Source of the DNA: Candidatus Woesearchaeota archaeon
Lineage (GTDB): Archaea > Nanobdellota > Nanobdellia > Woesearchaeales > JAGVYO01
NCBI GenBank assembly: GCA_018303225.1
Contig: JAGVYO010000021.1
Location: 1-50,137, forward strand
DNA length: 50,137 bases
Direction of reading: 5' to 3'
Shown here piece by piece: positions 1-47,283 of the stretch (position 1 is its first letter; every line of letters starts with the position of its first letter). The notes under the pieces are model-generated. The model worked only from the letters and a program-made list of their open reading frames with translations. It had not been told where the DNA came from and did no database searches. The translations under genes were made by a program, and so were the position numbers.

Positions 1-3000
1 TCGTTGTATCCGATGCGGATGAATCCCTCGTCATCGAACAATACCTGCCGTGGGTTGGTGTCCTCCAGCCTCACCCAGAGCGATACAGTCCCTTTATCCA
101 CATCATTGTTGGAGAACGCATTGTAGCTCAAATTGATGAAGTTATGGGCGCCGTCGAAATGATAGGCTTTCCCAATCTTTCCGTCCGCTACAAGGGTAGT
201 GCTGTTTATGATGCCGTTCTTGTCGTTTCCGTAATCAAATGCGTCGCTGTCGAACGGATAGTAGGCCAGCAATCCGGATTCGTTGTGCACGGTGCTTGCA
301 TTCAGGATGTCATTTCGATACCACCTATAGGCGATTGTGATATTGTCGCTGTCCACGTCCCTGCTTTCATTGGCAGCAGCCTTAAGGTGCTGTGTAGATA
401 AGGTATTGTTAAAGAGAAACCTTTCTTTGATCTCGTTTGCGGATAAAGTCTGGTTATAGATTGCTACTTCATCGATGAAGCCATCGAAGGTATATGCATT
501 GGCATTACCGGTCTCCATGCCCACCAATACCCTGGAAGCTGCGTACGCGTCGTCCTTGAAGGCCGTGGAGGATTTGTTGCCCGCAATCTCACCGTTGATG
601 TAGAACGTGACGCTTTCATTGGCATAGATTGCTGCCACATGGGTCCACTCGTTGAGGTTCACAGTCCGGTTGGATTGGATGGTGGTGGTCTGCAGATTGT
701 TGGGGCTGAAATAGAGCTTATACGATCCAGTGCTGTTGAATAAGGCAAAGGTATAGCCTTCATCTGCAAATACCCGGAAGGTCCTGGAGACGATAGGTGC
801 GTAGGTCCGGAGGGACGCCGGATATATCCATGCCGACAAGGTGTAGTTTCCTGAGGCGTTGAAATAGAGGCTCTCGTTGTTGCCTAAATTGACATGGGTG
901 CCGCTGCAGATTTTACCTACTTGGGCCAATACCAGCGCACCATCGAATGCTAGAACTCCACCATTTTGACTGACATCCAGCCCGTTGCAATGCAAGGTAC
1001 TGGAACAACTTGAAGTACCTTCGGTCAACCAGACCGGACAGTTGCCTATGTTACATTGAGAGATTATACTTTGATCAGCCCCCTGAACCATCCCGTTGCT
1101 ATCGATATCATACAGGCAGCCGTCGGTTCTCTTGGAACCATTGAAGCGGAATCCACGGGCCAGATAGCCGGTGGCGTTGGTTGTTCCGTTGATGACGCCG
1201 TCTATGGTACCGGCGCTGCTGATGCCAACGGTATCAACAGCATTATCTTCGACTTCCCAGTAGCCCACCAGATCCGAATCGTCCAAGGGCAGCTGCGAGC
1301 CGATAAATGAGCCGTTCAGGGAGGGTGGCGCGTTGCTTACGGTGAATGTCGCCAGTGTCGAATAATTCCAGTTATCAGAGGTGTCTTTGGCGTAGAACTG
1401 ATAGCCCACTACGGCTCCGCGGGATGCGTTGACCGTAAGGTTCACGGAATAATTGTAGGAAGTAATGAGGCCGCTTACAGAGACGTTGCTGATATTCTGC
1501 CATATGCCCGAATCGTTCCAGCCGAAGACGACCATCCTCAGGGCGGTTCCGTCCAACGCGGTCACGTTGATTTTTACGAGCTTGCCCCGGTACGGCGCTG
1601 AGAAATTGATGGACTGTCCTGTGAAACCAGGGCCTGTCAAGTCGGACTTAAATGTATTCAGGGCCGATGCCGTAAAGGTGGTGCCCAACGAATCGTTTGC
1701 ATAGAAGAGCCATCCGGTCGTATTCCCGTTGGATACGTTTACGGTCAGGTTCACTGTGTAATTGACTGAGCTGGCAGAGACTGTGATGTTACTGACATTC
1801 ATCCACGAGCCGTTTGTTCCGTTCCACGAAGCGATGATCATGCTGATCAGATCGGCATCAATGACCTTCACCGATAATTGCACGGTATCGTTGATCCGTG
1901 GAGCCGTATTATTGATGGCCAGGGTGAAGGAGGGTGAGACATTTGCGGGCTGGTCACTGGGCGTAACGCCGCCGGAATACGAGATGAATGCCGGTTCGGG
2001 CACAATTGACAGCTTGTAGCTGCTTTCATTCACTTTGCCGCCGGGGTCGTCCACATAGACGGTGCTCGTCATTTTGTAGGTGCTCTCATTGACCCGGAAA
2101 CCGCCATCGGTCGGGGTCACGATAAGATTTAGCTTGTATGAACCCTCGCTGGATTGGTCACCGCCTCCGATGATCACTCCGTTAAGTGTCATCTTATAGC
2201 CGGATTCGTTGGTGGCCAGATTGTGGGCATAGGCCATTTGGTCACCAAAGATGAATTCCTGGGTATGGACACCGACGGTATGGACTTTGACAATATGCCC
2301 TGCGGTCGCATTGCATGAATAGTTTTCATAAAACACATGCGTTCCGTTAAAGACAGGCGTCAATGTGAGGTTACCGCAGCGCAACCCGAGCCACTCCAAA
2401 TCATTCGGCGTACCGTTCCCGTATGTCGTGCCATTGCTGGCTGAGATGGTAAGATTGGCTATTCCGAAAGTGGTGAAGGCTACGGTCCAATTGCCACCCA
2501 CCATGGGATAGCTCTGCACGTTCAGGATGGTAATCTCTACTTCATAGGTCTGGTTGCTCAGGGAAGGCGTAATCCATTCGATGTAATCAATCAGGGAATT
2601 GTTGTTGGTGTCGAATTTAGAGGCATTTACTTCGGTCCTGGAATCGTTGACCAGCCAGTAGAGCCGTACAGCACCTTCGGGCGCTTCGACCGGCAATTCG
2701 GTGAAGGTGAGGATATTCTCGTAATGCACATTCGAAGATACGGTGATCCGCTTTGAGTAGGCATTGATCTCTTCTTCGATTGCCTGCGGGGCTTCGGTCT
2801 CGTATTCGATCTCAATCTCTTCGACAGGTTCCTCGATGAAAATCTCAGTGGTATCGTTGGCTTCTTGCGATTCAGCGATCACATTCCCAGTAATGGCATT
2901 GAACGTTTTAATGGATGTCTCAAAGTCGGGCGTCTTGACGCGGGCCTTCTCCACTTCAACTGTTTCGTTCTCCACCTTCTTGGTGACGTTGATGTTGGTG

Positions 3001-4250
3001 GCTTCTTTCGGCAGCTGGACAGTGATGTTGGACTGGGTCTCATTCAGTTTTATGGTCTTTTTCCACTTCACCGGTTTGCCGATGACGGCCTGGTATTGGA
3101 TGGTTTTTTCTTCTATAACTGAAATGTTCGTGGCATTGGCGATAGTGGCGTTTTCAAGGTGCTCTTCCAAGACCGAATAGGAAATAGCGTCGATGGTAAG
3201 TCCTACATTGTCCACATCAAAGATCAGCCGGTAGGAACTGGCATTGAAATCATCCAACAAGCAGTTTTCATGGCAGGTGTCATTGAATTCAAGCACAGCC
3301 TGCTGGAATCTTGCTGGCAAGGTAGCTTTCTCTGAATTGATGATTTCCGCCTCCAAATCAGAGAAATTGACATTGTAATAGACGATCTGTGCGCTAATCT
3401 CGTTATTGGCAGTGGAGTTGTATTTCTGGTAGGTTAAAAGGAAGGACTCATTCCAGGCAGTGCCCAACGGTTCCAGATCCAGGAAATTACAGCATTGCGC
3501 ATTGCCGTTGCAGACAGACTGAGTGGATAATGTGTCCAATGATTTGACTTCCCATCTTGTACAGAGGTTGTTTTCATCGATGTTTCCATTGAGTCCGGAA
3601 TTTTCTACAGTGAGGTCGATCACTCCGTCCAGGGGCTCTCTGCCATCGTTATTGGCGTCCCATGCAGAACCGGAATCATACGCCAAATCAATCGAGATAG
3701 ACTTGTCGACTGTTTCGTCGCTTTCTGCGGTTACGTTTGATGCTGTTGGCCCGGGAGATGTTTCATTTTCCATGACAGCAAATCCAGTAATTAAGTTGGA
3801 ATTGGATACATTCAGCCTGTCAGAATCGAAGACCAGATAGGCCTGACCCTCGTGCTCTATGTAAATTTTTGCTGTTCCCCCTGCTGAGACGGATCCGCTC
3901 AGTGCAATGGACCTCAGCTTGCCGACATGCTCGAGGAACCATGTCCTTTCAGTATCTCTTGCAACGGTAAAGGAGACGTCTTGCGTATATGCCGCGGCCT
4001 GTTCGCCGGTAATGAAACCGGTGATTTCCGGCCTGAGGAATAGTCCGAAGGCGATAACAAAGAGCAGGACGGCGACAATCGGCGCGATCCGGAGTGCACG
4101 ATCCTTTATTCTTTGATTCCGTAGGACACGCGCTACCTGCTTCTCGTCATAGCCTTTCCGGACCAGCTCTTGTCCGACGGCTTCCAGTGTGAAAACTGCA
4201 GGAACGCCGCTTTCCGGCTTCTGGTCCCGGATTTTGTCGTTAAGCTTCAT
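1..4250 (-). CDS. Very large membrane-anchored surface protein, partial (C-terminus lies beyond the window start). Contains LamG/concanavalin-A-like lectin domains, tandem Ig-like repeats and a dockerin-like Ca-binding repeat pair.
   Basis: The minus frame stays open from the ATG at 4250-4248 to the window edge. It is absent from the ORF track because it never closes. Hand translation gives MKLNDKIRDQKPESGVPAVFTLEAVGQELVRKGYDEKQVARVLRNQRIKDRALRIAPIVAVLLFVIAFGLFL (cytoplasmic tail plus one TM helix). Later segments are NEWTHVAAIYANESVTFYINGEIAG and DKGTVSLWVRLEDTNPRQVLFDD (LamG-type signatures), and DIDSNGMVQGADQSII / LDVSQNGGVLAFDGALVL (dockerin-like pair, about 930-1110). Two ~95-aa repeats lie around 1400-2000. 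There are dozens of N-x-S/T sequons. Confidence 0.8.
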   Translation of the reverse strand, partial: MKLNDKIRDQKPESGVPAVFTLEAVGQELVRKGYDEKQVARVLRNQRIKDRALRIAPIVAVLLFVIAFGLFLRPEITGFITGEQAAAYTQDVSFTVARDTERTWFLEHVGKLRSIALSGSVSAGGTAKIYIEHEGQAYLVFDSDRLNVSNSNLITGFAVMENETSPGPTASNVTAESDETVDKSISIDLAYDSGSAWDANNDGREPLDGVIDLTVENSGLNGNIDENNLCTRWEVKSLDTLSTQSVCNGNAQCCNFLDLEPLGTAWNESFLLTYQKYNSTANNEISAQIVYYNVNFSDLEAEIINSEKATLPARFQQAVLEFNDTCHENCLLDDFNASSYRLIFDVDNVGLTIDAISYSVLEEHLENATIANATNISVIEEKTIQYQAVIGKPVKWKKTIKLNETQSNITVQLPKEATNINVTKKVENETVEVEKARVKTPDFETSIKTFNAITGNVIAESQEANDTTEIFIEEPVEEIEIEYETEAPQAIEEEINAYSKRITVSSNVHYENILTFTELPVEAPEGAVRLYWLVNDSRTEVNASKFDTNNNSLIDYIEWITPSLSNQTYEVEITILNVQSYPMVGGNWTVAFTTFGIANLTISASNGTTYGNGTPNDLEWLGLRCGNLTLTPVFNGTHVFYENYSCNATAGHIVKVHTVGVHTQEFIFGDQMAYAHNLATNESGYKMTLNGVIIGGGDQSSEGSYKLNLIVTPTDGGFRVNESTYKMTSTVYVDDPGGKVNESSYKLSIVPEPAFISYSGGVTPSDQPANVSPSFTLAINNTAPRINDTVQLSVKVIDADLISMIIASWNGTNGSWMNVSNITVSASSVNYTVNLTVNVSNGNTTGWLFYANDSLGTTFTASALNTFKSDLTGPGFTGQSINFSAPYRGKLVKINVTALDGTALRMVVFGWNDSGIWQNISNVSVSGLITSYNYSVNLTVNASRGAVVGYQFYAKDTSDNWNYSTLATFTVSNAPPSLNGSFIGSQLPLDDSDLVGYWEVEDNAVDTVGISSAGTIDGVINGTTNATGYLARGFRFNGSKRTDGCLYDIDSNGMVQGADQSIISQCNIGNCPVWLTEGTSSCSSTLHCNGLDVSQNGGVLAFDGALVLAQVGKICSGTHVNLGNNESLYFNASGNYTLSAWIYPASLRTYAPIVSRTFRVFADEGYTFALFNSTGSYKLYFSPNNLQTTTIQSNRTVNLNEWTHVAAIYANESVTFYINGEIAGNKSSTAFKDDAYAASRVLVGMETGNANAYTFDGFIDEVAIYNQTLSANEIKERFLFNNTLSTQHLKAAANESRDVDSDNITIAYRWYRNDILNASTVHNESGLLAYYPFDSDAFDYGNDKNGIINSTTLVADGKIGKAYHFDGAHNFINLSYNAFSNNDVDKGTVSLWVRLEDTNPRQVLFDDEGFIRIGYN

Positions 4251-5167: not shown

Positions 5168-7057
5168 ATGCAATCGGGAATTCTTTTTCCGCATGATACT
5201 ATCCGGAAAATCCAGGATGAGATGGTGAAGGATGTCTATGATTCGGTTTCTTCCAAAAAGAACCTGATTGTGCACGCTCCTACCGGGTTAGGGAAAACAG
5301 CTGCCAGCTTAGGGCCTGCGTTAACCTATGCCCTGGAACATGACCTGACTGTATTTTTCTTAACCTCGCGGCATACGCAGCACCGGATTGCGATAGAAAC
5401 CCTGCAGAAAATCAGGGAAAAACATGATAAGATGCACAGGAAGATCGTCGCCTGCGATTTGATCGGCAAGCAATGGATGTGTTTAGTCCCTAATGTGCAG
5501 AGCCTGTACAGCAATGAATTCCATGAATTCTGCAACAGCCAAGTGGAAGATTACAAATGCGAGTTTTATGTGAAAACCAAGAAAAAAACCGGCCAGCCTA
5601 CGGTGGAAGCCAAAAAAGCGCTGTCTGAATTAGAGCAGCAGGGGCCGAAACATACCGAGCAGATTATCCAATTCTGCCAGGAAGAAGGCCTTTGTCCGTA
5701 TGAGACGGCCACGCTGCTGGCCGAGCATGCCAATGTCATCATCGCGGATTATTATTACGTGTTCCATCCTTCGATACGCCAGGCCTTATTCCAACGGGCC
5801 AAAAAAGAATTGGGGAAATGCATCCTCATCGTGGATGAAGGGCATAATCTGCCGAAACGCTGCCGCGATCTGCTGACGCACCGGTTAAGCACCGTAGCCG
5901 TGGAACGCGCAATCAAGGAAGCCGAGAAATATGAATTGGATGATATCCGGACCCACCTGATAGGCATAAGGGATGTGCTGCTGGATTATGCCGAAGACCT
6001 GAGAAAAGAAGAAGTTATGCTGGAAGAGATGAAGGTCGCAAAAGAGGATTTTGCAGGGAAAATCAATGCAATCCATAATTTTGATGAGATGATCACGGAT
6101 TTGCAATTCGCTGCGGATGAAATCAGGAAAAAGCAGAAGCAGAGCTATATCGGCAGCGTGGCTGATTTCCTGAGCAACTGGAGCGGGCCTGATTTCGGGT
6201 ATGTAAGGGTGTTTTCCAGAGCTGAGGGAAAAAAACCGTTGTTTACGTTGAGCTACCGATGCCTGGATCCCTCCCTGATCACAAAAGAGGTGATCGGGCA
6301 GGCGCATTCCACGATCATCATGTCCGGTACGCTGACCCCGACAGCCATGTATAAAGACGTGCTGGGATTTGAGGAGGCTGTTGAAAAAGAATACCCGAAC
6401 CCGTTTCCGAAGCAGAATCAGCTGAACCTGATCATCCCGGAGACCACCACAAAGTTTACAGCGCGGAATGAGGCGCAGTTCAAGCGCATTGCGGCCTTTT
6501 GTGCGAATATCGTGAATAGCGTTCCCGGCAATTCGGCATTGTTTTTTCCGAGCTATTTCCTGCGGGACCGGATCCATATGCATTTTGAAGGATTGTGCGA
6601 GAAAACGGTATTTCTGGAAAAGCCAGGCATGACGAAAGAGGAGAAGCAGGCATTCCTGGAGCGGTTCAAAAAATATAAGGATTCGGGGGCTGCTCTTTTG
6701 GGCGTCGCCACCGGCTCTTTCGGGGAAGGGATTGATTTGATTGGGGATTATCTAAAAGCAGTGGTTGTTGTCGGCTTGCCGCTCGAGAAGCCGAATCTGG
6801 AAACGCAGGCCCTGATCGATTATTACGAGCAGAAGTTCGGGAAAGGCTGGGATTATGGGTATGTATTGCCGGCCATAACCAGGACGCTGCAGAATGCAGG
6901 GCGGTGCATCCGCAGCGAGACGGATAGGGGAGTGATTGTGTTCCTGGATGAGCGGTACGCCTGGCCGCGGTATTTCAAATGCTTTCCGAAGGAGATGGGC
7001 GTCACGATTTCAAAATATTATCCGGAGAAGATCAAGGAATTCTTCTCTGTATCATAA
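5168..7057 (+). CDS. xpd: XPD/Rad3-type 5'-3' DNA helicase with Fe-S domain.
   Basis: Contains Walker A APTGLGKT, the DEAH-type box VDEGHNL, four Cys in the Fe-S domain region (CLVPN..FCNSQVEDYKCEF..LCPYE), and the C-terminal motif QNAGRCIRS. The ORF-track start at 5057 lies inside the repeat, so ATG 5168 (or 5156) is preferred because of the TATA spacing. Confidence 0.85.
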   Translation: MQSGILFPHDTIRKIQDEMVKDVYDSVSSKKNLIVHAPTGLGKTAASLGPALTYALEHDLTVFFLTSRHTQHRIAIETLQKIREKHDKMHRKIVACDLIGKQWMCLVPNVQSLYSNEFHEFCNSQVEDYKCEFYVKTKKKTGQPTVEAKKALSELEQQGPKHTEQIIQFCQEEGLCPYETATLLAEHANVIIADYYYVFHPSIRQALFQRAKKELGKCILIVDEGHNLPKRCRDLLTHRLSTVAVERAIKEAEKYELDDIRTHLIGIRDVLLDYAEDLRKEEVMLEEMKVAKEDFAGKINAIHNFDEMITDLQFAADEIRKKQKQSYIGSVADFLSNWSGPDFGYVRVFSRAEGKKPLFTLSYRCLDPSLITKEVIGQAHSTIIMSGTLTPTAMYKDVLGFEEAVEKEYPNPFPKQNQLNLIIPETTTKFTARNEAQFKRIAAFCANIVNSVPGNSALFFPSYFLRDRIHMHFEGLCEKTVFLEKPGMTKEEKQAFLERFKKYKDSGAALLGVATGSFGEGIDLIGDYLKAVVVVGLPLEKPNLETQALIDYYEQKFGKGWDYGYVLPAITRTLQNAGRCIRSETDRGVIVFLDERYAWPRYFKCFPKEMGVTISKYYPEKIKEFFSVS

Positions 7058-9430: not shown

Positions 9431-11965
9431 ATGCCGTGGATGATGGACAATAAGCAGATTAAAGAGGACCTCAAGAAGAAGAGTTTCAAGGAGCCTGAAA
9501 AATATTACCCCACCAAGGCCCTGAGCGAACTGGGCTACCGATTAAACCATTGCAAGAGCTGCAAGCGTATCTTCTATTCCATTGAAAAAAGCGACCTTTG
9601 CGGCGACCCGGTCTGTTCGGGCGGCTTCCGGTTCATAGGCAACACGCCGGCCAGAAACAAACTGGATTATATCGAAGCATGGAAGACATTTGCGGCCATC
9701 CTCAAGAAAAGAGGTTATACCGAGATTCCCCGGTATCCGGTCGTTGCACGATGGCGGGAAGACGAGTATTGGGTCGGCGCTTCGATCTACGATTTCCAGC
9801 CGTATGTGGTAAGCGGCGAAGTCGAACCGCCTGCAAACCCATTGGTGGTGCCGCAGTTCTGCATGCGCTTCAACGATGTGGATAACATCGGCATCACAGG
9901 CGCGCATTACAGTTGCTTCATCATGCAGGGCCAGCATGCCTTTGTCCCGGCCAAAGACTACAACAAAGACCAATACCTGAAAGACCTGCACGAATGGTTC
10001 GTGAAAGGCATCGGTGTCCCAAAAGAAGAATTGTTCATCCAGCCGGACTCGTGGGCCGGCGGAGGCAATGCGGGCGTAAGCCTGGAATTCTTTTCCCGCG
10101 GCCTGGAGATCGCAAACCAAGTGTACATGCAGTGGGAAGCCACCCCAACTGGCTTGAAGGATCTCAGTATAAAAGTGCTGGATATGGGCCAGGGCCAGGA
10201 ACGAGTGGCATGGTTTTCCCAGGGGGCCTCCACCAGCTACGAAACGACGTTCCCTGCGGTCTGTAAGAAGCTATATGCTGCGGCAGGCATCAAGGCAGAC
10301 AAAGAGCTGATGAAAAGGTTCTTACCGTATGCCTCCTACCTGAACATCGATGAAGTGGAGAACATTGACAAGGCATGGAAAAGTGTAGCAAATAAAGTAG
10401 GTATCGGAAGCGCTGAACTGAAAAAGCAGATACTGCCGCTGGCAGCCCTCTATTCCGTTGGCGAGCATGCGAGAGCATTGCTGGTCGCGCTCTCGGACGG
10501 TGCATTGCCTTCCAACGTGGGCGGCGGCTATAACCTGCGCATCATACTACGAAGAGCATTGTCATTCATCGACCAATACCGGTGGAAACTAGACCTGAAG
10601 GACATCTGCGATTGGCATGCGGCTTATTTGAAACCATTATTCCCTGAACTGAGCGAAAGCCTGGAAGAAGTGCACAAGATTCTGGATGTCGAGAGGGAAA
10701 AATACAATGCCACCAAGGAGAAATCCCGGCAGATTGTGGAACGGCTGCTGAAAGAGGAGATCACCGAGCAAAAACTGCTCCAATTGTACGACAGCCAGGG
10801 CATTTCCCCTGAATTAATCCGGGAAGAGGCTGCTAAACTTGACAAAAAGGTGTCGGTGCCTGAAAATTTCTACTCCATGGTCTCGGAACTGCACGAGAAG
10901 AAAGAGCAGGTGCACGCCACCGCACGGGAAGAGAAGCTGGATCTGAAGGACGTGCCGGCCACAGAAGCGCTGTATTTTGATGACTACCTGAAAACCAGCA
11001 ATGAAGGCAAAGTGCTGAAGATCATCGGAAATAACGTGGTCTTGGATAAGACTGTAGCCTATCCCACTTCGGGCGGGCAGGTCCATGATGTAGGTATGAT
11101 CAATGGACAACTTCTGGTAGCGGTGTTCAAACAGGGGAACGTGATTGTGCATGCCCTAAAAGACAAGCCTTCTTTCAAGGTTGGCGATAAGGCAAAGGTA
11201 GAGGTGGATAAAGAGCGACGAAAGCAATTGGCCCAGCATCATACAGCCACCCACATCATCAGCGCCGCGGCCCGGAAAGTATTGGGAAATCACGTGAACC
11301 AGGCGGGCGCAAAAAAGACCGTGGAGAAGGCGCACCTGGACATCACCCATTATGAGAATGTTTCTGACGAAGAACTGAAAAAGATTGAGGAGGAAGCCAA
11401 CAAGATTGTGAAAAAGAAAATTGTAGTAAATAAATTCTTCCTGCCCAGAAACGAGGCAGAGAAGAGATACGGTGTCCGGATTTACCAGGGTGGAGCTGTA
11501 CCCGGCAAAAAACTACGGATTGTGGAAATTGAAGGCACAGATGTGGAATGCTGCGGTGGCACGCACCTGAACAATACGTCCGAAGCCGATGAAATAAAGA
11601 TTCTGAAATCCTCCAAAATACAGGATGGGATCGTCCGTTTGACTTTTACAGCCGGAAAGGCCCTGCAGAAAGAGCAGAAAGCCTCCAGCGGAATATTGGA
11701 AGAGGCTGCCAGACTGCTGGACGTGAAGCCCGATGAGGTGCCGGCAAGGGCGAATGAGCTGTTCGAGAAATGGAAAAAAGCCCGGAAGGCCGCCAAGAAA
11801 GGCGACAGAATGGACGCCAACGAATTGAAATTGACGGCAAAAGAACGATGGGAAGGCGATCCGCTGGCGAAAACAGCCGAAGTGCTAAGCACCCAGCCGG
11901 AGCATATCATCAATACGCTGAAGCGGTTCCTGAATGAATTGGACGGTTTCAAGAAAAAGTCCTGA
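9431..11965 (+). CDS. alaS: Alanine--tRNA ligase, archaeal type.
   Basis: 844 aa. Has an N-terminal Cys cluster (CKSCKRIF...CGDPVC), the editing-domain motifs HHTATHII and CCGGTH, and a class II core. Confidence 0.9.
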   Translation: MPWMMDNKQIKEDLKKKSFKEPEKYYPTKALSELGYRLNHCKSCKRIFYSIEKSDLCGDPVCSGGFRFIGNTPARNKLDYIEAWKTFAAILKKRGYTEIPRYPVVARWREDEYWVGASIYDFQPYVVSGEVEPPANPLVVPQFCMRFNDVDNIGITGAHYSCFIMQGQHAFVPAKDYNKDQYLKDLHEWFVKGIGVPKEELFIQPDSWAGGGNAGVSLEFFSRGLEIANQVYMQWEATPTGLKDLSIKVLDMGQGQERVAWFSQGASTSYETTFPAVCKKLYAAAGIKADKELMKRFLPYASYLNIDEVENIDKAWKSVANKVGIGSAELKKQILPLAALYSVGEHARALLVALSDGALPSNVGGGYNLRIILRRALSFIDQYRWKLDLKDICDWHAAYLKPLFPELSESLEEVHKILDVEREKYNATKEKSRQIVERLLKEEITEQKLLQLYDSQGISPELIREEAAKLDKKVSVPENFYSMVSELHEKKEQVHATAREEKLDLKDVPATEALYFDDYLKTSNEGKVLKIIGNNVVLDKTVAYPTSGGQVHDVGMINGQLLVAVFKQGNVIVHALKDKPSFKVGDKAKVEVDKERRKQLAQHHTATHIISAAARKVLGNHVNQAGAKKTVEKAHLDITHYENVSDEELKKIEEEANKIVKKKIVVNKFFLPRNEAEKRYGVRIYQGGAVPGKKLRIVEIEGTDVECCGGTHLNNTSEADEIKILKSSKIQDGIVRLTFTAGKALQKEQKASSGILEEAARLLDVKPDEVPARANELFEKWKKARKAAKKGDRMDANELKLTAKERWEGDPLAKTAEVLSTQPEHIINTLKRFLNELDGFKKKS

Positions 11966-11980
11966 AGTTTCCGTTTTCTA

Positions 11981-12145
11981 CAGGCTCAAAAGAAAAAAAT
12001 GGCGCATTGGCAAATAAAGCCTTTTTTATAGCGACTAGGGGAAATCAGCAAAAATTCCGGCACGGAATTTTTGAGTTGGCCGCTATCGCTAAAAAATCTT
12101 TTTTAATGCGTTTTTTGAGCGAAAGCTTTTTAAACGCACAATATC
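11981..12145 (+). repeat. Modular intergenic repeat, copy C.
   Basis: Shares aaaaatggcgcattggcaaataaagccttttttatagcg, the palindrome CAAAAATTCCGGCACGGAATTTTTG (12049-12073) and a cgctaaaaaatcttttttaatgcg-like module. The palindrome differs from A/B by a paired change (TTTCG/CGAAA to TTCCG/CGGAA). Confidence 0.75.
12127..12134 (+). promoter_or_regulatory. TATA box candidate (TTTTTAAA) upstream of the Leu-rich leader ORF.
   Basis: Centred about 31 nt upstream of the ATG at 12162, which implies a leader of only a few nucleotides. Confidence 0.4.
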
Positions 12146-12161
12146 TTCCTACCGAGTTACA

Positions 12162-12224
12162 ATGGCAACGAATTCCTTAAACCTTAACCAATTGATGATT
12201 TCCTTACTTCTATTGCTGCGATAG
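12162..12224 (+). CDS. Candidate leucine-rich leader peptide upstream of leuABCD (MATNSLNLNQLMISLLLLLR).
   Basis: Hand translation: atg gca acg aat tcc tta aac ctt aac caa ttg atg att tcc TTA CTT CTA TTG CTG cga tag. Eight of 20 codons are Leu, including five consecutive Leu codons that are all different. The ORF lies 100 nt upstream of leuA. Confidence 0.55.
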   Translation: MATNSLNLNQLMISLLLLLR

Positions 12225-12252
12225 GTTCCGATCTTTTTATCAAGGTCGAACC
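12224..12252 (+). promoter_or_regulatory. An 11-bp hairpin (one bulge) that begins at the last base of the leader stop codon and contains a T5 tract. A second hairpin follows at 12256-12273 with TTTAATT after it.
   Basis: GGUUC-C-GAUCUU (12224-12235) pairs with AAGGUC-GAACC (12242-12252). CATTG (12256-12260) pairs with CAATG (12269-12273). Confidence 0.45.
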
Positions 12253-12324
12253 GCCCATTGTTTCCAGCCAATGTTTAATTAAACCACCCAACATGTCACC
12301 CAACACGTACGGAGGAACGGCATC

Positions 12325-13860
12325 ATGAAACATATCAGAATATTTGACACCACATTAAGAGACGGCGAGCAGAGCCCGGGCGCCAATCTGACGCCGGCCG
12401 AAAAGCTCATGATCGCAAAGCAGCTGGAGAAGATGAATGTGGACATCATCGAAGCCGGCTTCCCCATCTCGTCCAAAGGCTCTTTCGAGGCAGTCGAAGC
12501 CATCGCCAAGGAAGTGAAAAAACCCGTCATATGCGCATTGGCACGGACCAATAAGGAAGACATCGATGCGGCCTGGAACGCGATCAAGCACGCCAAGAAG
12601 CCGCGCATCCACGTGTTTGTGGCTACCTCACAGATCCATATGGAGCACAAGCTCAAGAAATCGCCGGAGGAAGTCATCAAGATGGCCTCCGAGGCGGTGA
12701 AATACGCCAAATCGTTCTGCGAGGACATTGAGTTTTCGCCGGAGGATGCATCGCGCAGCGATATCGATTACATGTGCAGGGTCATCGAGGCTGCCGTGGC
12801 AGCTGGTGCAACGACCATCAATATCCCAGATACCGTGGGCTATGCGCATCCGGATGAGTACGGATCGCGCTTCAGATATGTGCAAGAGAATGTCGCCAAT
12901 ATCAAGGGCGCCATCTTAAGCGCCCACTGCCATAATGATTTGGGCCTGGCTACGGCCAATTCGCTGGCGGCCATTGAAAATGGGGCTACGCAGATTGAAG
13001 GCACGATCAACGGCATCGGCGAACGGGCCGGAAACGTGGCGCTGGAAGAGGTCATCATGGCCCTGAAGACACGAAAAGACTATTATGATGCAGACACGGC
13101 CATCAATACCAAAGAGATTTTCCGCACCAGCCGGATGGTCTCCAAATTGACGGGCATGCCGATCCAGTGGAATAAGGCCATTGTCGGAAGAAACGCATTT
13201 TCCCACGAAGCCGGCATCCACCAGCACGGCGTATTGTCATACAAGAAGACCTATGAAATCATGTCCTCGGAAGACATCGGTTGGGAAGGGGAGAATATCG
13301 TCTTCGGCAAATTGTCAGGAAAACATGCTGTGGAAGATGTACTGAAGAAAGCGGGCATCACCCTGAACAAGGAACAGGTGCTGCAGGTGACGGCCAAGAT
13401 CAAAGAGCTGTCGGACAAGCAGAAACAGATCGAACAGAGCGACGTGATAGCCTTGGCATTGGATACGCTAAACCAGCTCAACGAAGGGGAAGAGATCATA
13501 AAGCTGGATGAATGGAGCGTGTTGACCGGCAATAAGATCACACCCAGTTCAACCGTCGGATTGACCATTGACGGTGAAAAGAAAGTAGGCACGGCCGCCG
13601 GCGTCGGACCGGTGGATGCAGCTTCGAATGCCATCAAATCTGTGATCGGGCCGTTCATCCACCTCAAGGAATACAACCTGAAGGCCATCACCGGCGGAAC
13701 GGATGCGCTGGCCAGCGTCAGCATCAAGCTGGAAGACAATCAAAGGAATGTTTTTGTCTCAGAGGCTGTAGAACCGGACGTGATTATGGCCTCGGTGAAA
13801 GCCATTATCAAAGGCGCCAACAAAGCCCTCGTTTTCAAGAAAAGGCACAAAAAGGAGTGA
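12325..13860 (+). CDS. leuA: 2-isopropylmalate synthase.
   Basis: Contains [26 protein letters not shown], and a C-terminal LeuA dimer/regulatory domain. GGAGG lies 8-9 nt upstream of the ATG. Confidence 0.9.
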
Positions 13861-15269
13861 TGATGGGAGAAAACCTGTTCAACAAGGTATGGAAACTGCA
13901 TTCGGTACGGGAATTGCCTTCTGGCCAGACGCAGCTCTTCATCGGGCTGCATTTGATTCACGAAGTTACCAGTCCGCAGGCCTTCCAGATGCTGCGGGAA
14001 CGCGGTGAAAAGGTAGTGTACCCCGGGCACACATTTGCTACTGTGGATCATATCGCACCCACGGACGATCAAACACGGCCTTTCAAAGATCCGCTCGCGG
14101 AGCAGATGATGAAAGCCCTGGAGAAGAATACCAAAGAATTCGGCATCAAACTTTTTGACATGAAAAGCCAGAAGCAGGGTATCGTGCACGTGATCGGGCC
14201 CGAATTGGGGATTACGCAACCGGGCATGACCATCGCGTGCGGAGACAGCCATACGAGCACCCACGGCGCTTTCGGTGCTGTCGCTTTCGGCATCGGAACA
14301 AGCCAGATACGGGATGTCTTGGCTACCCAATGCCTGGCGATGGCAAAGCCCAAGGTGCGCCGCATCAACGTGACAGGAAAACTCGGAAAGGGGGTGTATG
14401 CCAAAGACGTGATACTGAGCATCATCCGCAAATTGGGTGTCAAAGGGGGCATTGGATACGCGCACGAATACGGCGGCGAAGTGCTGGAACGGATGAGCAT
14501 GGAAGAACGGATGTCCATCTGCAACATGAGCATTGAAGGCGGCGCACGGGCAGGCTATGTGAATCCCGACCGGACCACATTCGATTACATCAAAGGCCGT
14601 GAGTTTGCACCGAAAGGGGCGGCTTTTGAAAAAGCAGTCGACTGGTGGAAATCCATTGCTTCGGACAAGAATGCTAAATACGATGATAGGGTTGAATTAA
14701 ATGGGTCTAAGCTAGAGCCCACTATCACCTGGGGCATCAATCCCGGACAGGCAGTTGGCATCTCGGAGAATTTTCCCGAGGTAGGAGAGCTGCCGGAAGA
14801 TCAGCAGAATACAGCCAGGGAAGCTTACGAGCACATGTCGTTTGAACCGGGAAAGCCTGTCGCGGGGACTAAAATTGATGTGGCGTTTATCGGTTCGTGC
14901 ACCAACAGCCGCATCTCAGATTTGCGGGAAGCGGCTAGGATCGTGAAAGGAAAAAAAGTCGCGAAAGGTATCCGCGCACTGGTGGTGCCGGGCTCGCAGC
15001 AGGTCAAGAAGGCTGCGGAGAAAGAAGGTCTTGACAGGATATTCAGCGAAGCAGGCTTTGAATGGAGAGGAGCGGGCTGCTCCATGTGCTTAGCGATGAA
15101 CCCGGACAAGCTGAAAGGAAGGGAGATATGCGCCTCTTCCTCCAACCGGAATTTTAAAGGCCGACAGGGAAGCGCCACCGGCAGGACCATCCTGATGAGC
15201 CCGGCCATGGTGGCTGCGGCAGCATTAAATGGAAAGCTGGTGGATGTGAGGGATCACCTGCCCAACTAA
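13860..15269 (+). CDS. leuC: 3-isopropylmalate dehydratase large subunit (long, about 470 aa form).
   Basis: Carries the aconitase-family motifs CGDSHT, GSCTNSR and CSMCLAMN. The start overlaps the leuA stop (gTGATGatg) and AAAGGAG lies just upstream. Confidence 0.9.
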
Positions 15270-15270
15270 A

Positions 15271-15891
15271 ATGAGCCAAAACCTAAATGTCAAAACCGTA
15301 AAAGGGCGTGCCCTCCCGCTGACCGGGGATGATATTGATACAGACCGGATCATTCCGGCGCGCTACCTGAAGTGCGTGACGTTTGATGAGCTTGGGCAGT
15401 ATGCCTTTTACGACGAACGCTTCAGGGAAGACGGCACGAAAAAGAACCACCCGTTCAATGACCCGCGCTATAAGGGTGCTTCCATCCTGATCGTGAATAA
15501 AAATTTCGGCTGCGGCTCTTCGAGGGAGCATGCGCCGCAATCGCTGATGCGGTTCGGGATCAACGGCATCATCGGCGAGAGCTTTGCAGAGATATTCGCG
15601 GACAACTGCACCACACTCGGCATTCCGGTGGTCGTCGCCCAGAAATCGGACATAGGGAACCTGATGAGCGTGGTGAAGGACGATCCGGCCTGCGAAGTAA
15701 GAATCGACCTCGAAAGCAAGGAAGTGTGCTATGGGGATTTCAGCATACCTGTCCACCAGCAGGAATCCTCACGCCGGGTGCTTGTCGAAGGGACATGGGA
15801 CTCCATGGCAGTGCTGAAAAGCGCGGCTGCAGAGACGAAACAATTGGCTAACCGATTGCCTTATCTGAAGGGATTCCAGGAGGATGCATGA
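15271..15891 (+). CDS. leuD: 3-isopropylmalate dehydratase small subunit (long, about 206 aa form).
   Basis: Contains the GCGSSREHA motif. It starts 1 nt after the leuC stop. Confidence 0.9.
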   Translation: MSQNLNVKTVKGRALPLTGDDIDTDRIIPARYLKCVTFDELGQYAFYDERFREDGTKKNHPFNDPRYKGASILIVNKNFGCGSSREHAPQSLMRFGINGIIGESFAEIFADNCTTLGIPVVVAQKSDIGNLMSVVKDDPACEVRIDLESKEVCYGDFSIPVHQQESSRRVLVEGTWDSMAVLKSAAAETKQLANRLPYLKGFQEDA

Positions 15892-16955
15892 AAACGTACA
15901 AGATAGCGGTATTGCCAGGCGATGGCATCGGGCCGGAGATCATGAAGGCAGCGCAAACCGTATTGGATGCTGTAAGCAGGAAATTCAACGTAGAATTTAA
16001 TTATACCGAAGCGGATGTAGGGGGAGTTGCCATTGAAAAACACGGCACGGCACTTCCCAAAGAGACGGTAAAAATCTGCGAGAATTCGGATGCCATCCTC
16101 TTCGGGGCAGTAGGCGATCCCCGGTATGACGACCTGCCGCCGGAAAAGAAGATCGAGCCCGTGGCGCTGCTGGGGCTGCGGAAGCATTTTGATCTGTTCG
16201 CGAATCTACGGCCTTCGTTCCTATATCCTTTCCTATACAGGACTTCCCCGCTGAAAGAATCCATCGTGAAAGAGGGATTCGACATCCTCATTGTGCGCGA
16301 ACTGACAAGCGATGCATATTTCGGGAAGAAGGTCCTGAAAGAAGATATGGGATCGGACGAGATGCTGTACCGGAAGCCCGAAGTGGAGCGGATTGCGAAA
16401 ACAGCGTTTGAGGCAGCGCGGAAACGAAAGAAATATGTGACCTGCGTGGACAAATCCAATGTGCTCTCCTCCAGCATTTTGTTCCGTCGAACGGTTACCG
16501 AAGTGGCGAAGAAGTATCCCGATGTAAAACTGGATTATCTCTTCATCGATAATGCCACCACGATGATCATCAAAAGGCCCAAGGATTTTGATGTGATGGT
16601 CACCACCAACATGTTCGGCGATATCTTAAGCGACGAAGCCGCGATGCTCAGCGGCAGCCTGGGCATGCTGCCTTCGGCCTCCATCAACGAGAAGGGCTTC
16701 GGGATGTACGAGCCTGCAGGCGGTTCTGCGCCGAAAATGGCCGGAAAAAATACCGCCAACCCGATTGCGCAGATTTTGTCGGCAGCCCTGATGCTGCGGC
16801 ATTCCTTTAAGATGGAGAAGGAAGCCCAAGCCATTGAATCGGCTGTCCAGAAAACCCTCCACAAATACCGGACCAAAGACATCATGGAAGAAGGGATGGA
16901 GCAAGTTGGCACGAAGGAGATGGGCGAAAAGATTGCGGAGAATATCGGCAGATAG
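15888..16955 (+). CDS. leuB: 3-isopropylmalate dehydrogenase.
   Basis: Contains NMFGDILSDEAAMLSGSLGMLPSAS. It has an ATGA overlap with leuD. Confidence 0.9.
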   Translation: MKTYKIAVLPGDGIGPEIMKAAQTVLDAVSRKFNVEFNYTEADVGGVAIEKHGTALPKETVKICENSDAILFGAVGDPRYDDLPPEKKIEPVALLGLRKHFDLFANLRPSFLYPFLYRTSPLKESIVKEGFDILIVRELTSDAYFGKKVLKEDMGSDEMLYRKPEVERIAKTAFEAARKRKKYVTCVDKSNVLSSSILFRRTVTEVAKKYPDVKLDYLFIDNATTMIIKRPKDFDVMVTTNMFGDILSDEAAMLSGSLGMLPSASINEKGFGMYEPAGGSAPKMAGKNTANPIAQILSAALMLRHSFKMEKEAQAIESAVQKTLHKYRTKDIMEEGMEQVGTKEMGEKIAENIGR

Positions 16956-22433: not shown

Positions 22434-22521
22434 GCGCAGATGGTCTAACGGCTATGACAGCGGCCTTCCATTTTTTCCGAGAAGCAAGCCGCTTATCCGG
22501 GTTCGAATCCCGGTCTGCGCA
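22434..22521 (+). tRNA. tRNA-Gly (anticodon UCC) with a 16-nt canonical intron (22471-22486) between positions 37 and 38.
   Basis: Hand fold: acceptor GCGCAGA/TCTGCGC, D-arm GTCT..TGAC, anticodon stem GCGGC/GCCGC, loop CT-TCC-A[intron]A, T-arm CCGGG-TTCGAAT-CCCGG, discriminator A. The BHB is CUUC:GAAG with bulges CA|U and CA|A. No CCA is encoded. Confidence 0.85.
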
Positions 22522-40357: not shown

Positions 40358-41581
40358 CTATCCTTTCACAACGCTGTAAAGTACCAGTGGCGTTTCTTTA
40401 AGTTCTGGAATGCGCCCCATATCAACAGTAAGATAAGCATCCCTAATGATCTGACCTGCAAAACCATGTGCCAGTTCGACTCTTTTCCCCCGCCAAGAGG
40501 TATCTTCTTGCTTACCCCTAAAATTGAGAGCTTCGCGGCTAAATGGACTCATTTTTATTCTTTCTCCATTTGGTTTAACGATATGAGCTGCTTGAGCAAA
40601 AGATTCCGCTTCTTTTGTGGTATACTTAACAATTTTTCCAATAGCATAGCCATTTTGCCTAAGCCTCCCCAAGAAACCAGCAGGAATTCTGGCAGTCATT
40701 ATATTTGTGGTTTCATCCTCATAGCATTTAACACCTAAATCTCCAAGTACTGTTCTAACCCCCTCAACTCCATCCGCTTTAAAGTATATATCCACATGGC
40801 GCGGTATTTCGGCTCTGGCAAATTGTTCTCTCGTTCCCTGTTGCTCTAAATAAAACTGTCTTTGCTCATGCGCTGCTTTAACAAGCAGGTCTAATTGCTT
40901 GGGAGTTATTGATTGTCTTCCATCTGTCCTAGCCATAATGGGATCGTGGTGCACTTCCACTATGAGACCGTCTACTCCTGTTGCAACTGCCCCCATCGTA
41001 ATCCCATAAACGTATTCACGTTTTCCACTGATATGGCTTGGATCAAAAATAATTTGGTAAGGTGTGTTATTAACCAGTTCTACGAGAGTGGTTATGTCTT
41101 GACCATTCCTTGCAATATCTATCTCATTATTTTTTCCTCTGGCACAAAGCATAACTCTATCTTCTTTCCCCACCTTACCAGCAGAACCCAACCATTCTTT
41201 TAAAGTAGTATTCATCCCATTTTTCAAAAGAACCTGGACTTCTGCTTTACCTAATTCAAAAAGTAAAGATTGATTCTGTGCATTTCGTGCACCAACTTGG
41301 TATAAGTCTACACCATGTTCCTGGAACATAGGTATATCCCGAGCATCCATGATTTCAGTTACTATTTTTAGCTCGTATTCATCTCCTATTTTTCGCATCC
41401 ATCCTAAAGCTTTTTCACCATGCCCTACCCATTCTCCTGCTTTTGTTCTTGGTTTGAATGCTCCCCCTCGCAGGTAATCCGCACCAACTGATTTTACCAC
41501 TTCAGTTGTCCTTCTTAATTGGTCTTCACTCTCAATAGAACAAGGACCTGCCATAACAATTAAATCAGATTTATCGCTCAT
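40358..41581 (-). CDS. Divergent DAHP synthase / KDO8P synthase family (type I-beta-like) aldolase fused to a ~140-aa C-terminal domain of unknown function.
   Basis: Contains [32 protein letters not shown] and VEVHHDP..TDG, so the metal and PEP ligand positions are retained. It deviates from the canonical KPRTSPYSFQG (here [13 protein letters not shown]). Residues about 265-407 have no recognisable motif. It is strongly AT-rich: one 60-nt sample counted by hand is 19/60 GC. Confidence 0.65.
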
Positions 41582-41673: not shown

Positions 41674-41796
41674 TTAACGCAACATCCCAAACAATTTCAC
41701 CAAGAAGATGATTGCTCCAGCAAGAACAACTATCTTTACCCCCAACACCCACCACCAGAATCTCTTCGCGATTATCTTACGGGCTTTGTGCTTCAT
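41674..41796 (-). CDS. Small ORF (40 aa, MKHKARKIIAKRFWWWVLGVKIVVLAGAIIFLVKLFGMLR) between atpD and the DAHP-synthase-like gene.
   Basis: Hand translation. Three consecutive TGG codons lie at 41757-41749. AGGAA lies just upstream of the ATG. It is below the ORF-track length cut-off. Confidence 0.35.
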   Translation of the reverse strand: MKHKARKIIAKRFWWWVLGVKIVVLAGAIIFLVKLFGMLR

Positions 41797-47200: not shown

Positions 47201-47268
47201 CGGGCCTGGATGCCCTTGGCCACGACGACGGGGCCTGCAATCCTGTACAATTTTCCTTCTTGTGTCAT
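44242..47268 (-). CDS. atpA: A/V-type ATP synthase catalytic subunit A, interrupted by an intein (extein about 580 aa).
   Basis: Contains KLYRIAGPVVVA..., the split P-loop GPFGAGK|[intein]|TVAQQ, and VAVMADSTSRWAEAMREIS. ATG 47268 follows GGTGAT. The ORF-track TTG is at 47283. Confidence 0.9.
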   Translation of the reverse strand: MTQEGKLYRIAGPVVVAKGIQARMYDVVRVGNEGLMGEVIQIRGDMTVIQVYEDTSGLKPGEKVTNTGQPLSVQLGPGLLTSIYDGIQRPLPVLQKQMGDFIKRGVYADGLDAKKKWDFKATAKKGDKVSGGSIIGEVEETEGLVQKIMVPPNVGGTLKEIKSGSFTVKETVAVLDNGIEIKLSHYWPVRLPRPVNKKLTPEVPLVSGQRIFDALFPLAKGGVAAIPGPFGAGKCITGETKIFVNGELRPIENVFETADGEAAVHGNETIIQLAKPLKIQTFNGERIVEALATHIYKGKTSRIVKINTRSGKEVRLTPVHKLFRLDEGLTIGEIEAQNLSEGDFIISPRKTDYSGEYQPISFSYKPKRFHNKVSIPGVLTEEFSEFVGYVMADGMIKGFRTVHFFNKKDKLRQRFKFLLKELFGLEGKEYWARTVEAVQTGSIILAKLLESLNMPLMKKSRNVDIPKQLLVSPVSVIKSFLVAYISCDGHVGKKEIEIATASAKMKDSLAYLLLRLGVLNRTRTKLVNGVQYYRVFIPKREAIKIHPYYDQSFYYNSNDIVPMTSTLFRELLGETKPFALEKEGISTAAYYVNQNMTAQTLQKVASKLQNAQLTKFASALDYIFCDEILDVEIIDKDMDVYDITVPETHNFVGGNTPMILHNTVAQQTLAKWCDAEIIVYVGCGERGNEMTEVLKEFPELTDPKSGKPLMNRTVLIANTSNMPVAAREASIYTGVTIAEYYRDMGYNVAVMADSTSRWAEAMREISSRLEEMPGEEGYPAYLSTRLAEYYERAGRVIPLGTKQEGSVTLIGAVSPPGGDFSEPVTQGTLRVVKTFWALDAKLAQRRHFPSINWLTSYSLYLDTLEPWFKQHVASDWRLLISEISAILQEEDKLQEIVQLVGSDALPEKQQLTLEVARLIRESFLQQNAFHDVDTYCELKKTHLLMKILLLYRKLAYEALGKGARVQQILGLKAKDRIGEAKFEKDYQKLLADVQKQMEREFSQVGGSK
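45283..46566 (-). mobile_element. A 428-aa intein with a LAGLIDADG homing-endonuclease domain, inserted in the Walker A P-loop of atpA.
   Basis: It starts at Cys (CITGETKIFVNGE, codon 46566-46564) and ends ..GGNTPMILHN (45285-45283), followed by Thr +1. LAGLIDADG-type blocks are FVGYVMADGMIKG and SFLVAYISCDGHVGK. It is more AT-rich than the flanking extein. Confidence 0.85.
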
Positions 47269-47283
47269 TTTGAAATCACCCAA

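Follow-up and report, generated by a model that had tools for sequence, protein, structure and literature searches.

Can an archaeon read the charging state of a tRNA by translating a short leader peptide ahead of a biosynthetic operon? The question is raised by a 20-codon open reading frame (ORF) that precedes the leucine biosynthesis genes leuACDB in a 50,137-nt stretch of DNA from a Candidatus Woesearchaeota archaeon (contig JAGVYO010000021.1; hereafter the window), and that closes with a run of five consecutive leucine codons. Textbooks present leader-peptide attenuation as a consequence of the coupling between transcription and translation. To our knowledge it has been demonstrated in bacteria only, and although transcription-translation coupling has been seen in archaea, we know of no regulatory use established for it there. 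In full-text searches of the literature we likewise met no account of leader-peptide or ribosome-mediated attenuation in an archaeon, nor did the most relevant papers contain one, which agrees with the original prediction made from this DNA that the mechanism is not established in that domain.

Our analysis suggests that the ORF is probably a cis-regulatory leader-peptide sensor of tRNA-Leu charging for leuACDB, and that in sister lineages the corresponding ORFs also sense Val and Ile. We hold this view because the arrangement is present in 12 of 12 related archaeal loci, and because the composition of the peptide co-varies with the content of the operon. The only selected property of the leader ORF is likely to be its run of codons for the products of the operon, and the loci together offer what we regard as strong comparative evidence, drawn from sequence, for leader-peptide ribosome stalling in archaea. 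The principle is known; what would be new is the archaeal domain, the archaeal promoter, leaderless initiation and a distinctive hairpin next to the stop codon.

A leucine-rich leader ORF upstream of leuA

The elements on which the argument depends are listed below by their position in the window.

12127..12134 (+): TATA-like box TTTTTAAA of the leader promoter, 27 nt 5' of the leader ATG
12155..12161 (+): probable transcription start zone, from TATA-to-start spacing, giving a 5' untranslated region (UTR) of about 5 nt or less
12162..12224 (+): leader ORF MATNSLNLNQLMISLLLLLR, 20 codons plus TAG (ATG at 12162, stop at 12222-12224)
12204..12218 (+): putative regulatory run of five Leu codons, TTA CTT CTA TTG CTG, followed by CGA and TAG
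12224..12252 (+): stop-adjacent hairpin A (5' arm 12224-12235, loop 12236-12241, 3' arm 12242-12252)
12234..12238 (+): T5 tract within hairpin A (arm and loop), 10-14 nt past the stop
12256..12263 (+): CATTG motif and T-rich tail directly 3' of hairpin A
12256..12273 (+): weak second hairpin of 5 bp, CATTG 12256-12260 with CAATG 12269-12273; not significant
12274..12283 (+): TTTAATTAAA, 43 nt before leuA, readable as a weak U-rich stretch or as a TATA-like box with one mismatch
12311..12315 (+): Shine-Dalgarno (SD) sequence GGAGG of leuA, 9 nt 5' of its ATG
12325..13860 (+): leuA, encoding 2-isopropylmalate synthase of the long bacterial type (NF002086, 718 bits; TIGR00973, 674 bits)

The ORF is present as originally described, ending in TTA CTT CTA TTG CTG CGA TAG and separated by a 100-nt spacer from leuA, whose ATG is at 12325. 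Leu accounts for 8 of the 20 codons (the 40% that had been claimed), the five codons of the run are all different, and five of the six Leu codons are thus sampled. No ATG-initiated ORF of 10-45 codons with five Leu in six codons, located at most 300 nt upstream of leuA, arose in any of 2000 dinucleotide-preserving shuffles, and the reverse strands of nearly all loci were free of such ORFs. Across both strands of the 50-kb window this is the sole small ORF that combines at least five identical residues in six codons with a TATA-like box, the box being required 15-32 nt upstream.

The codons TTA, CTT and CTA supply 5 of the 8 leader Leu codons, versus about 20% in the genes of the contig; the excess of these rare, AT-rich codons could be genuine, or it could be compositional and reflect AT-rich intergenic DNA. 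We do not regard the succession of five different Leu codons as a designed feature: its probability under contig codon usage is p ~0.02, but it is not conserved among the leaders of the archaeal relatives and is probably incidental. Five other metagenome contigs from this species carry the identical leader, and a sixth differs by one single-nucleotide polymorphism, L11W, which lies outside the run. The hydrophobic stretch of the peptide spans about 9 residues, too short for a membrane helix.

The leader design recurs in related archaea

To find relatives, one genome per species was scanned and 5.8 billion proteins were searched. Closest to the window LeuA, at 58-80% identity, stands a large clade of sequences labelled Woesearchaeota, Nanoarchaeota, Nanoarchaeia or Iainarchaeum in NCBI, and bacterial LeuA sequences are about 50% identical to this archaeal clade. 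All 80 loci returned by a metagenome scan with the LeuA alignment were bacterial (~50% identity) and were used just for counting bacterial Leu leaders. We examined the DNA around thirteen members of the clade; counts out of 12 refer to the window plus the 11 relatives in which leuA heads its operon.

In every one of the 12 loci with leuA first in the operon, a leader ORF of 20-29 codons lies immediately upstream in the same orientation. L174 and L175 have no ORF directly upstream of leuA, and here leuA is internal to a longer operon, preceded by a cimA-like gene in L174 and, across an 81-nt gap, by ilvE in L175. The leader peptides of the relatives are as follows.

L167: M(SDM)GKNTFLRIIFANSLLLLLI
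L007: MADTKSRKSSMLFLLNLNLLSLLLLLL
L168: MASNFRLLKNSSLLLALLLLFLLL
L176: MKMQTNSRNLVLILLLVVLLLL
L171: MKDNKVKASSSATIILVLVLIVILLI
L169: MQAPNSKNSVSVLLLVVIILVLII
L170: MHDNHSITGSAIIGKSVLLLVLVL
L172: MANRIKFQMSKILLVLLLLVVLL
L173: MKGINKKNLSNLLLVLSLLLLVL
L008: MSSKYAYKTVSKDFAKPKTVLEKLLLLLR
L177: MKRTNSFKSFTFLLVLLLLVLVL

The N-terminal halves of these peptides are polar and unrelated in sequence, and conservation is limited to a run of branched-chain residues (Leu, Val or Ile) that ends 0-1 codon before the stop in 12/12 loci. L177, retrieved after all the others to test the pattern prospectively, matched all predictions. The composition of the run also follows the genes that come after it, with at least two Val codons among the last 12 in all six leaders whose leuA is followed by ilvB-ilvN versus one of the six without (leu-only or leuA-ilvE operons; Fisher one-sided p=0.0076). 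Such tracking of operon content would be difficult to account for if the codons were not being read out as a signal. Conservation in related genomes had been named as a check on the original prediction, and it was borne out for the Leu-run ORF upstream of leuA (12/12) and for the position of the first hairpin. TATA box aside, a MAFFT alignment of six leaders contained no alignable nucleotide blocks, and therefore no covariation statistics can be computed without fitting the alignment to the structure.

Several of these loci have peculiarities of their own. L007 (CAYWNO010000102.1) is a 5.8-kb contig binned as 'Methanosarcinales archaeon', whose LeuA is 76% identical to the Woesearchaeota one and which has the same leader design; the bin label looks doubtful, because the contig is this short and its LeuA falls within the DPANN clade. 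L171 carries a fused leuD-leuB gene at 5185-6269 (+), encoding 576 aa with Aconitase_C and Iso_dh domains, L174 has two tandem leuA/cimA-like genes at 910-4045 (+), and in L169 a 32-aa ORF is called between leuA and ilvB at 4057-4155 (+).

An archaeal promoter and a probable near-leaderless transcript

The usual archaeal TATA-to-start distance is about 24-27 nt. From the spacing between the TATA-like box and the ATG, the leader mRNA would therefore be leaderless or nearly so, and this spacing recurs in the relatives. Seven of 11 loci have a perfect archaeal TATA consensus (TTTAAATA, TTTATATA or TTTATAAA) whose end lies 22-25 nt upstream of the leader ATG, three further loci of the 11 have one-mismatch boxes 21-27 nt before it, and the box of L177 lies at 23 nt. 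Over the full set, the distance is 21-27 nt in 11 of the 12 loci and about 30 nt in L008. A sigma-70 promoter scan of 11900-12400 gave one chance-level match, on the opposite strand. The archaeal-style promoter with an almost leaderless start that was originally proposed is thus supported.

The spacers between ORF and leuA (11 loci) hold no perfect TATA box at a promoter-compatible distance, just scattered one-mismatch matches, and four loci are without any TATA-like box in the spacer even when one mismatch is allowed. Across loci leuA is usually preceded by an SD sequence, which L176 lacks. Since there is no conserved spacer promoter and leuA has its SD, co-transcription of the ORF and leuA is the simplest reading and the most likely one. 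A counterpart of the TTTAATTAAA box of the window is not conserved in the relatives.

A hairpin adjoins the stop codon

Hairpin A begins on the G of the leader stop codon and has 11 bp with one bulge. Its folding energy of -11.8 kcal/mol (z = -3.48) was equalled in 0 of 200 shuffles, so that the 11-bp hairpin on the last base of the stop, with its T5 tract, stands as originally described. In 12/12 loci the first base of a GC-rich hairpin lies between -2 and +5 nt relative to the end of the stop codon, the stem sequences being unrelated, and the 43-nt segment beginning at the stop is more stably folded than its shuffles in 11/11 loci (mean z = -2.5; L177, z = -2.25). The entire 174-nt leader of the window is no stabler than its shuffles (z = +0.36), and its centroid structure contains hairpin A alone.

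In the window hairpin A is flanked by CATTGTTT. In 10 of 11 loci the 14 nt 3' of the hairpin have a higher T content than the remaining spacer (0.44 vs 0.27, Wilcoxon p=0.019). Among the relatives, T4-T6 tracts at +12 to +17 after the stop occur in L167, L169 and L176 and not in the others. CATTG or a close variant is found 1-5 nt after the hairpin in 6-8 loci, with T-rich sequence next: the motif itself in the window, L167, L007, L168 and L170, and variants (CATTA, CAGTG, CATTT) in L172, L169 and L176, too short a motif in too few loci for statistics.

The original prediction also held a second hairpin followed by TTTAATT. Both are present, but the hairpin is at chance level (-2.7 kcal/mol, z = -1.35, with 24/200 shuffles folding equally well), it is not conserved in the relatives, and TTTAATTA is itself TATA-like. 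Rfam gave no match at E up to 10 in 11900-12400, none at gathering score in the window and none at gathering score in 10 archaeal relatives, and these absent matches exclude a T-box, a riboswitch and the known leader families, including Leu_leader (RF00512).

How the leader might act

We propose the following course of events. The archaeal TATA promoter would fire about 5 nt before the leader ATG and yield a near-leaderless transcript, in which the peptide, conserved only in its branched-chain run up to the stop, would matter through run residues corresponding to the pathway genes of the operon, always with a GC-rich hairpin at the stop. SD-led leuA, having no conserved promoter of its own, would most likely be read from this leader transcript. 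A ribosome would load at the 5' end and translate while RNA polymerase is still within the 100-nt spacer. When tRNA-Leu is charged, the ribosome would reach the UAG and depart, hairpin A would fold beside its T-rich flank (12258-12263, then 12274-12280), and most transcripts would end or become inactivated before leuA. When tRNA-Leu is uncharged, a ribosome held on the last Leu codons would cover the 5' arm, because the run abuts the hairpin; hairpin A would be blocked and the operon expressed.

If the sensor is real, we tentatively prefer premature transcription termination as its output, with hairpin and T-rich tail as the 'off' element, while placing this somewhat below an even chance; control of leuA translation or mRNA fate comes next and is by itself unlikely, and the remaining share falls to a factor-dependent variant resembling tna attenuation and to other outputs. 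In favour of the hairpin as an 'off' element, both run and hairpin abut the stop in 12/12 loci and the flank is T-rich. The same geometry fits equally a hairpin that acts as the 'on' element, which may fold on an upstream stall and be melted by a ribosome reaching the stop; the scattered upstream Leu codons speak for that arrangement, and the absence of an identified 'off' signal speaks against it. As a specific proposal for DPANN archaea, true ribosome-mediated transcription attenuation, in which a leaderless Leu/Val/Ile leader, the stop hairpin and its U-rich flank govern termination before the leu/ilv operon, is possible but doubtful.

A number of observations weigh against a sensor that works through hairpin A. 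A ribosome that stalls near the beginning of a long run, or at Leu6, Leu8 or Leu11 of the window leader, leaves the hairpin free. T-runs of at least four after the hairpin are found in just about half of the loci, and an intrinsic-terminator scan returned 0 sites in 11900-12400. Archaeal RNA polymerase is not known to need hairpins for termination. In folds of the window, no competing partner of the kind that a four-region model calls for was found for either arm of hairpin A, and masking by a ribosome at four positions shifts predicted accessibility of the leuA ribosome-binding site (RBS) little, from 0.33 to ~0.45 in the window, the changes in other loci being inconsistent. At the window locus, moreover, TTTAATTA at 12274 could be a leuA promoter.

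We rejected a classical four-region attenuator: no rival pairing for hairpin A was found, and the second hairpin is insignificant. The original description of the locus as having the classic architecture of bacterial leuL attenuation does not hold, given that no antiterminator/terminator pair was found, that the second hairpin is at chance level and that T-runs of four or more are missing in about half of the loci. Computing alternative RNA structures, which had been suggested alongside it, turned up no mutually exclusive pairing.

Explanations that keep the sensor while changing its output, or dispense with it, have to be set against these data. The same sensor could act on translation or later: the vacated, pyrimidine-rich 3' part of the ORF would pair with the SD/AUG region of leuA and block initiation, stalled ribosomes would free the RBS, and the effect would spread through the overlapping stop/start junctions. 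This is unlikely. In the window ensemble UCCU/UGAUG of the ORF are predicted to pair with GGAG/CAUCA around the start of leuA; between the final 39 nt of the ORF and the leuA RBS ~10 bp are expected, versus 5.7 +/- 3.8 in shuffles, and pairing is predicted likewise in L171, L008 and L172. It is near zero in L167, L007, L176, L170 and L173, and in most loci not above shuffles; for run and spacer, pairing exceeds shuffles just in L169 and, marginally, in the window. Nor are cognate run/RBS duplexes stronger than non-cognate ones (permutation p=0.15, a comparison of low power as runs and SDs are all alike), and the gain in accessibility noted above is small and inconsistent. The position of the run at the 3' end of a leaderless small ORF (sORF), as in a mycobacterial system (10.1101/834739) and the LEU element (PMC1262725), counts for translational control, as do the strong leuA SD, the 4-nt overlaps of leuA/leuC and leuD/leuB, and an output that needs no hairpin-dependent terminator and so suits archaeal RNA polymerase. 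It leaves the universal stop-adjacent hairpin unexplained, and L176 is without the SD. A factor-dependent scheme of the tna type, in which vacated pyrimidine- or U-rich RNA from the 3' end of the ORF and the T5 tract would recruit the archaeal termination factor aCPSF1/FttA and a ribosome on the run would hide the site, would have the advantage that occupancy logic tolerates stalls anywhere along the run, and Seliverstov et al. proposed a Rho/tna-like mechanism for terminator-less actinobacterial leader peptides (PMC1262725). T4-T6 tracts do lie 10-17 nt past the stop in the window, L167, L169 and L176, and the intergenic region between alaS and the leader is rich in T5-T6 runs, consistent with oligo-U termination signals; but a near-stop T tract is missing in 8/12 loci, and that of the window is partly buried in the hairpin stem. 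We know of no characterised termination factors in DPANN archaea, and we consider this scheme improbable.

The ORF could instead be an independent small gene, for example for a hydrophobic micropeptide, ended by its own hairpin terminator, with leuA read from a promoter at TTTAATTAAA (12274-12283). The one-mismatch box TTTAATTA, 43 nt before leuA, would fit a 5' UTR of ~20 nt that carries the SD, the hairpin with its T-rich flank could merely terminate a short transcript, and a second small ORF in the window (41674-41796) does have its own promoter and a hydrophobic tail. Yet the peptide is unconserved outside the branched-chain run, which tracks operon content (p=0.0076), and its hydrophobic stretch in the window is too short for a membrane helix; the spacers are without a perfect TATA box at promoter-compatible distance, four of them even with one mismatch, and the ORF always stands directly upstream of the first leu/ilv operon gene and co-oriented with it (12/12). 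A separate gene is thus very improbable. That the ORF is a chance open frame in AT- and pyrimidine-rich intergenic DNA would accord with the G+C content of that DNA (~39-43%) and with a whole leader RNA no more structured than shuffles (z = +0.36), but is effectively refuted by the failure of all 2000 shuffles to give a Leu run, by reverse strands that nearly all lack such ORFs, and by recurrence of the design in 12/12 loci, where promoter spacing and the placing of run and hairpin are the same.

Returning to the sensor, if it is real then archaea of the DPANN group, with their reduced genomes, would control amino-acid synthesis via tRNA charging. Should its output prove to be attenuation, transcription-translation coupling would be a regulatory device in the archaeal domain, and an archaeal polymerase or termination factor would read a hairpin-plus-U signal. 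With the design present in at least 12 Woesearchaeota, Nanoarchaeota and Iainarchaeota lineages, the family offers a compact test case for coupling-based regulation. It can address whether archaeal ribosomes steer RNA polymerase or mRNA fate, the nature of an archaeal conditional terminator, and whether such leaders originated independently or crossed domains together with bacterial-type leu genes.

Host, operon and other features of the window

The host is a DPANN archaeon, represented by a Woesearchaeota metagenome-assembled genome. This follows from the archaeal-type alanyl-tRNA synthetase gene (alaS; TIGR03683) upstream of the leader, from the A-type ATPase, archaeal Nre, XPD and SMC also encoded on the contig, and from the window LeuA, which is MBS3126215.1 of Candidatus Woesearchaeota archaeon in NCBI. 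The leader is followed by a compact operon, leuA-leuC-leuD-leuB, with 4-nt overlaps at leuA/leuC and leuD/leuB, and each of the four genes scores as a long, bacterial-type enzyme. Downstream of leuA it comprises:

13857..15269 (+): leuC, whose start overlaps the leuA stop by 4 nt
15271..15891 (+): leuD
15888..16955 (+): leuB, the final operon gene, whose start overlaps the leuD stop by 4 nt; the next gene is convergent

The intergenic region that holds the leader is AT-rich (~39-43% G+C). Between alaS and the leader promoter it contains a perfect inverted repeat, AAAAATTCCG-GCA-CGGAATTTTT, at 12050-12072 (+), flanked by A5 and T5 in the manner of a bidirectional terminator, together with five more T4-T6 runs (11966-12120). 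Repeat and runs are probably the termination signals of alaS, and give a hint at the terminators of this host. Because T5-T6 runs are abundant directly 3' of alaS, oligo-T is probably a termination signal in the host, and the T5 within hairpin A may matter for this reason.

Elsewhere in the window a small ORF, MKHKARKIIAKRFWWWVLGVKIVVLAGAIIFLVKLFGMLR, at 41674-41796 (-), contains Phe-Trp-Trp-Trp and lies ~90 nt before a DAHP (3-deoxy-D-arabino-heptulosonate 7-phosphate) synthase gene at 40358-41581 (-), with its own TATA-like box. We considered it as an aromatic attenuator and found this unlikely, given its 24-residue hydrophobic tail and the aro gene's own leaderless promoter (TTTATATA-24 nt-ATG); it is probably a separate small membrane protein. 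The gene for A-type ATP synthase subunit A, 44242-47283 (-), encodes 1013 aa and is split by an intein with a LAGLIDADG homing-endonuclease domain. The gene for tRNA-Glu(UUC), 22434-22521 (+), is 88 nt long, ~13 nt above the usual length, which suggests an archaeal intron.

Comparison with known leader-peptide systems

In its general plan the archaeal leader is like enterobacterial leuL (RF00512) and the trp, his, phe, thr and ilv attenuators, with a short ORF before the first biosynthetic gene and tandem cognate codons. As in the enterobacterial leu attenuator, rare Leu codons are enriched and a GC-rich hairpin separates the leader from the operon. The ilvBN and ilvGMEDA operons of E. coli have multivalent Leu/Val/Ile leaders, and the archaeal leaders resemble these in that their Leu/Val/Ile runs are multivalent where ilv genes are present. 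Unlike leuL, however, they belong to archaeal hosts and have a TATA promoter and near-leaderless start instead of a sigma-70 promoter and an SD; the run sits at the extreme C-terminus, the hairpin starts on the stop codon, and neither an antiterminator/terminator pair, a canonical U-run nor an Rfam match was detected.

Closer in layout are the poly-Cys sORFs of mycobacteria, in which the run pairs with the downstream SD in a very stable long duplex and control is translational (10.1101/834739). Both systems have a leaderless first-cistron sORF with its codon run at the 3' end, an untranslated spacer of ~100 nt, an SD-led biosynthetic gene and no obvious intrinsic terminator (10.1101/834739). 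They differ in amino acid and domain of life; in addition, run-SD pairing is predicted in some archaeal loci only, and the archaeal leader is not unusually stable. The actinobacterial LEU element has a proposed base stem between Leu run and leuA SD that encloses inner helices, as well as a conserved pseudoknot, and mutation of its Leu codons reportedly deviates from the classical attenuation prediction (PMC1262725); in Corynebacterium the leader peptide is translated without an RBS (PMC1262725; PMC11857589). Like this element and the leaderless ilvB/leuA leaders, the archaeal loci place a Leu-run ORF before leuA. No sequence or structure homology to the LEU element was detected, the archaeal loci sharing just their stop-adjacent hairpin, and the run:SD helix that defines the actinobacterial systems is not consistently present in them.

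Bacterial relatives of leuA also carry such leaders: in ~39 of 153 loci there is a small ORF with at least four Leu in six codons, examples ending at the stop in ...SLSLLLLRR (Planctomycetota) or ...LLLLLP (Gammaproteobacteria). Highly similar leaders, MSMN...SLSLLLLRR, precede leuA by ~170-200 nt in four Planctomycetota loci (L030, L044, L049 and L052); there the stop codon is spanned by TTGCGCC-GT-TAG-GCGCAA pairing and conserved blocks (GGCATAATTGGCC) lie downstream, and these leaders appear to form a well-defined bacterial leuA attenuator family. The archaeal leaders are like the bacterial ones in having a C-terminal Leu run, a stop within 0-2 codons and a long-form leuA 100-200 nt downstream, and two of them end in LLLLLR at the stop, resembling the bacterial versions. 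In the bacterial leaders, by contrast, the final Leu/Arg codons themselves take part in pairing that bridges the stop (TTGCGCC..GGCGCAA), with additional conserved helices downstream. As LeuA identity is only ~50%, no recent common origin or donor is evident, and the archaeal leaders were either imported and refitted with archaeal promoters or evolved independently.

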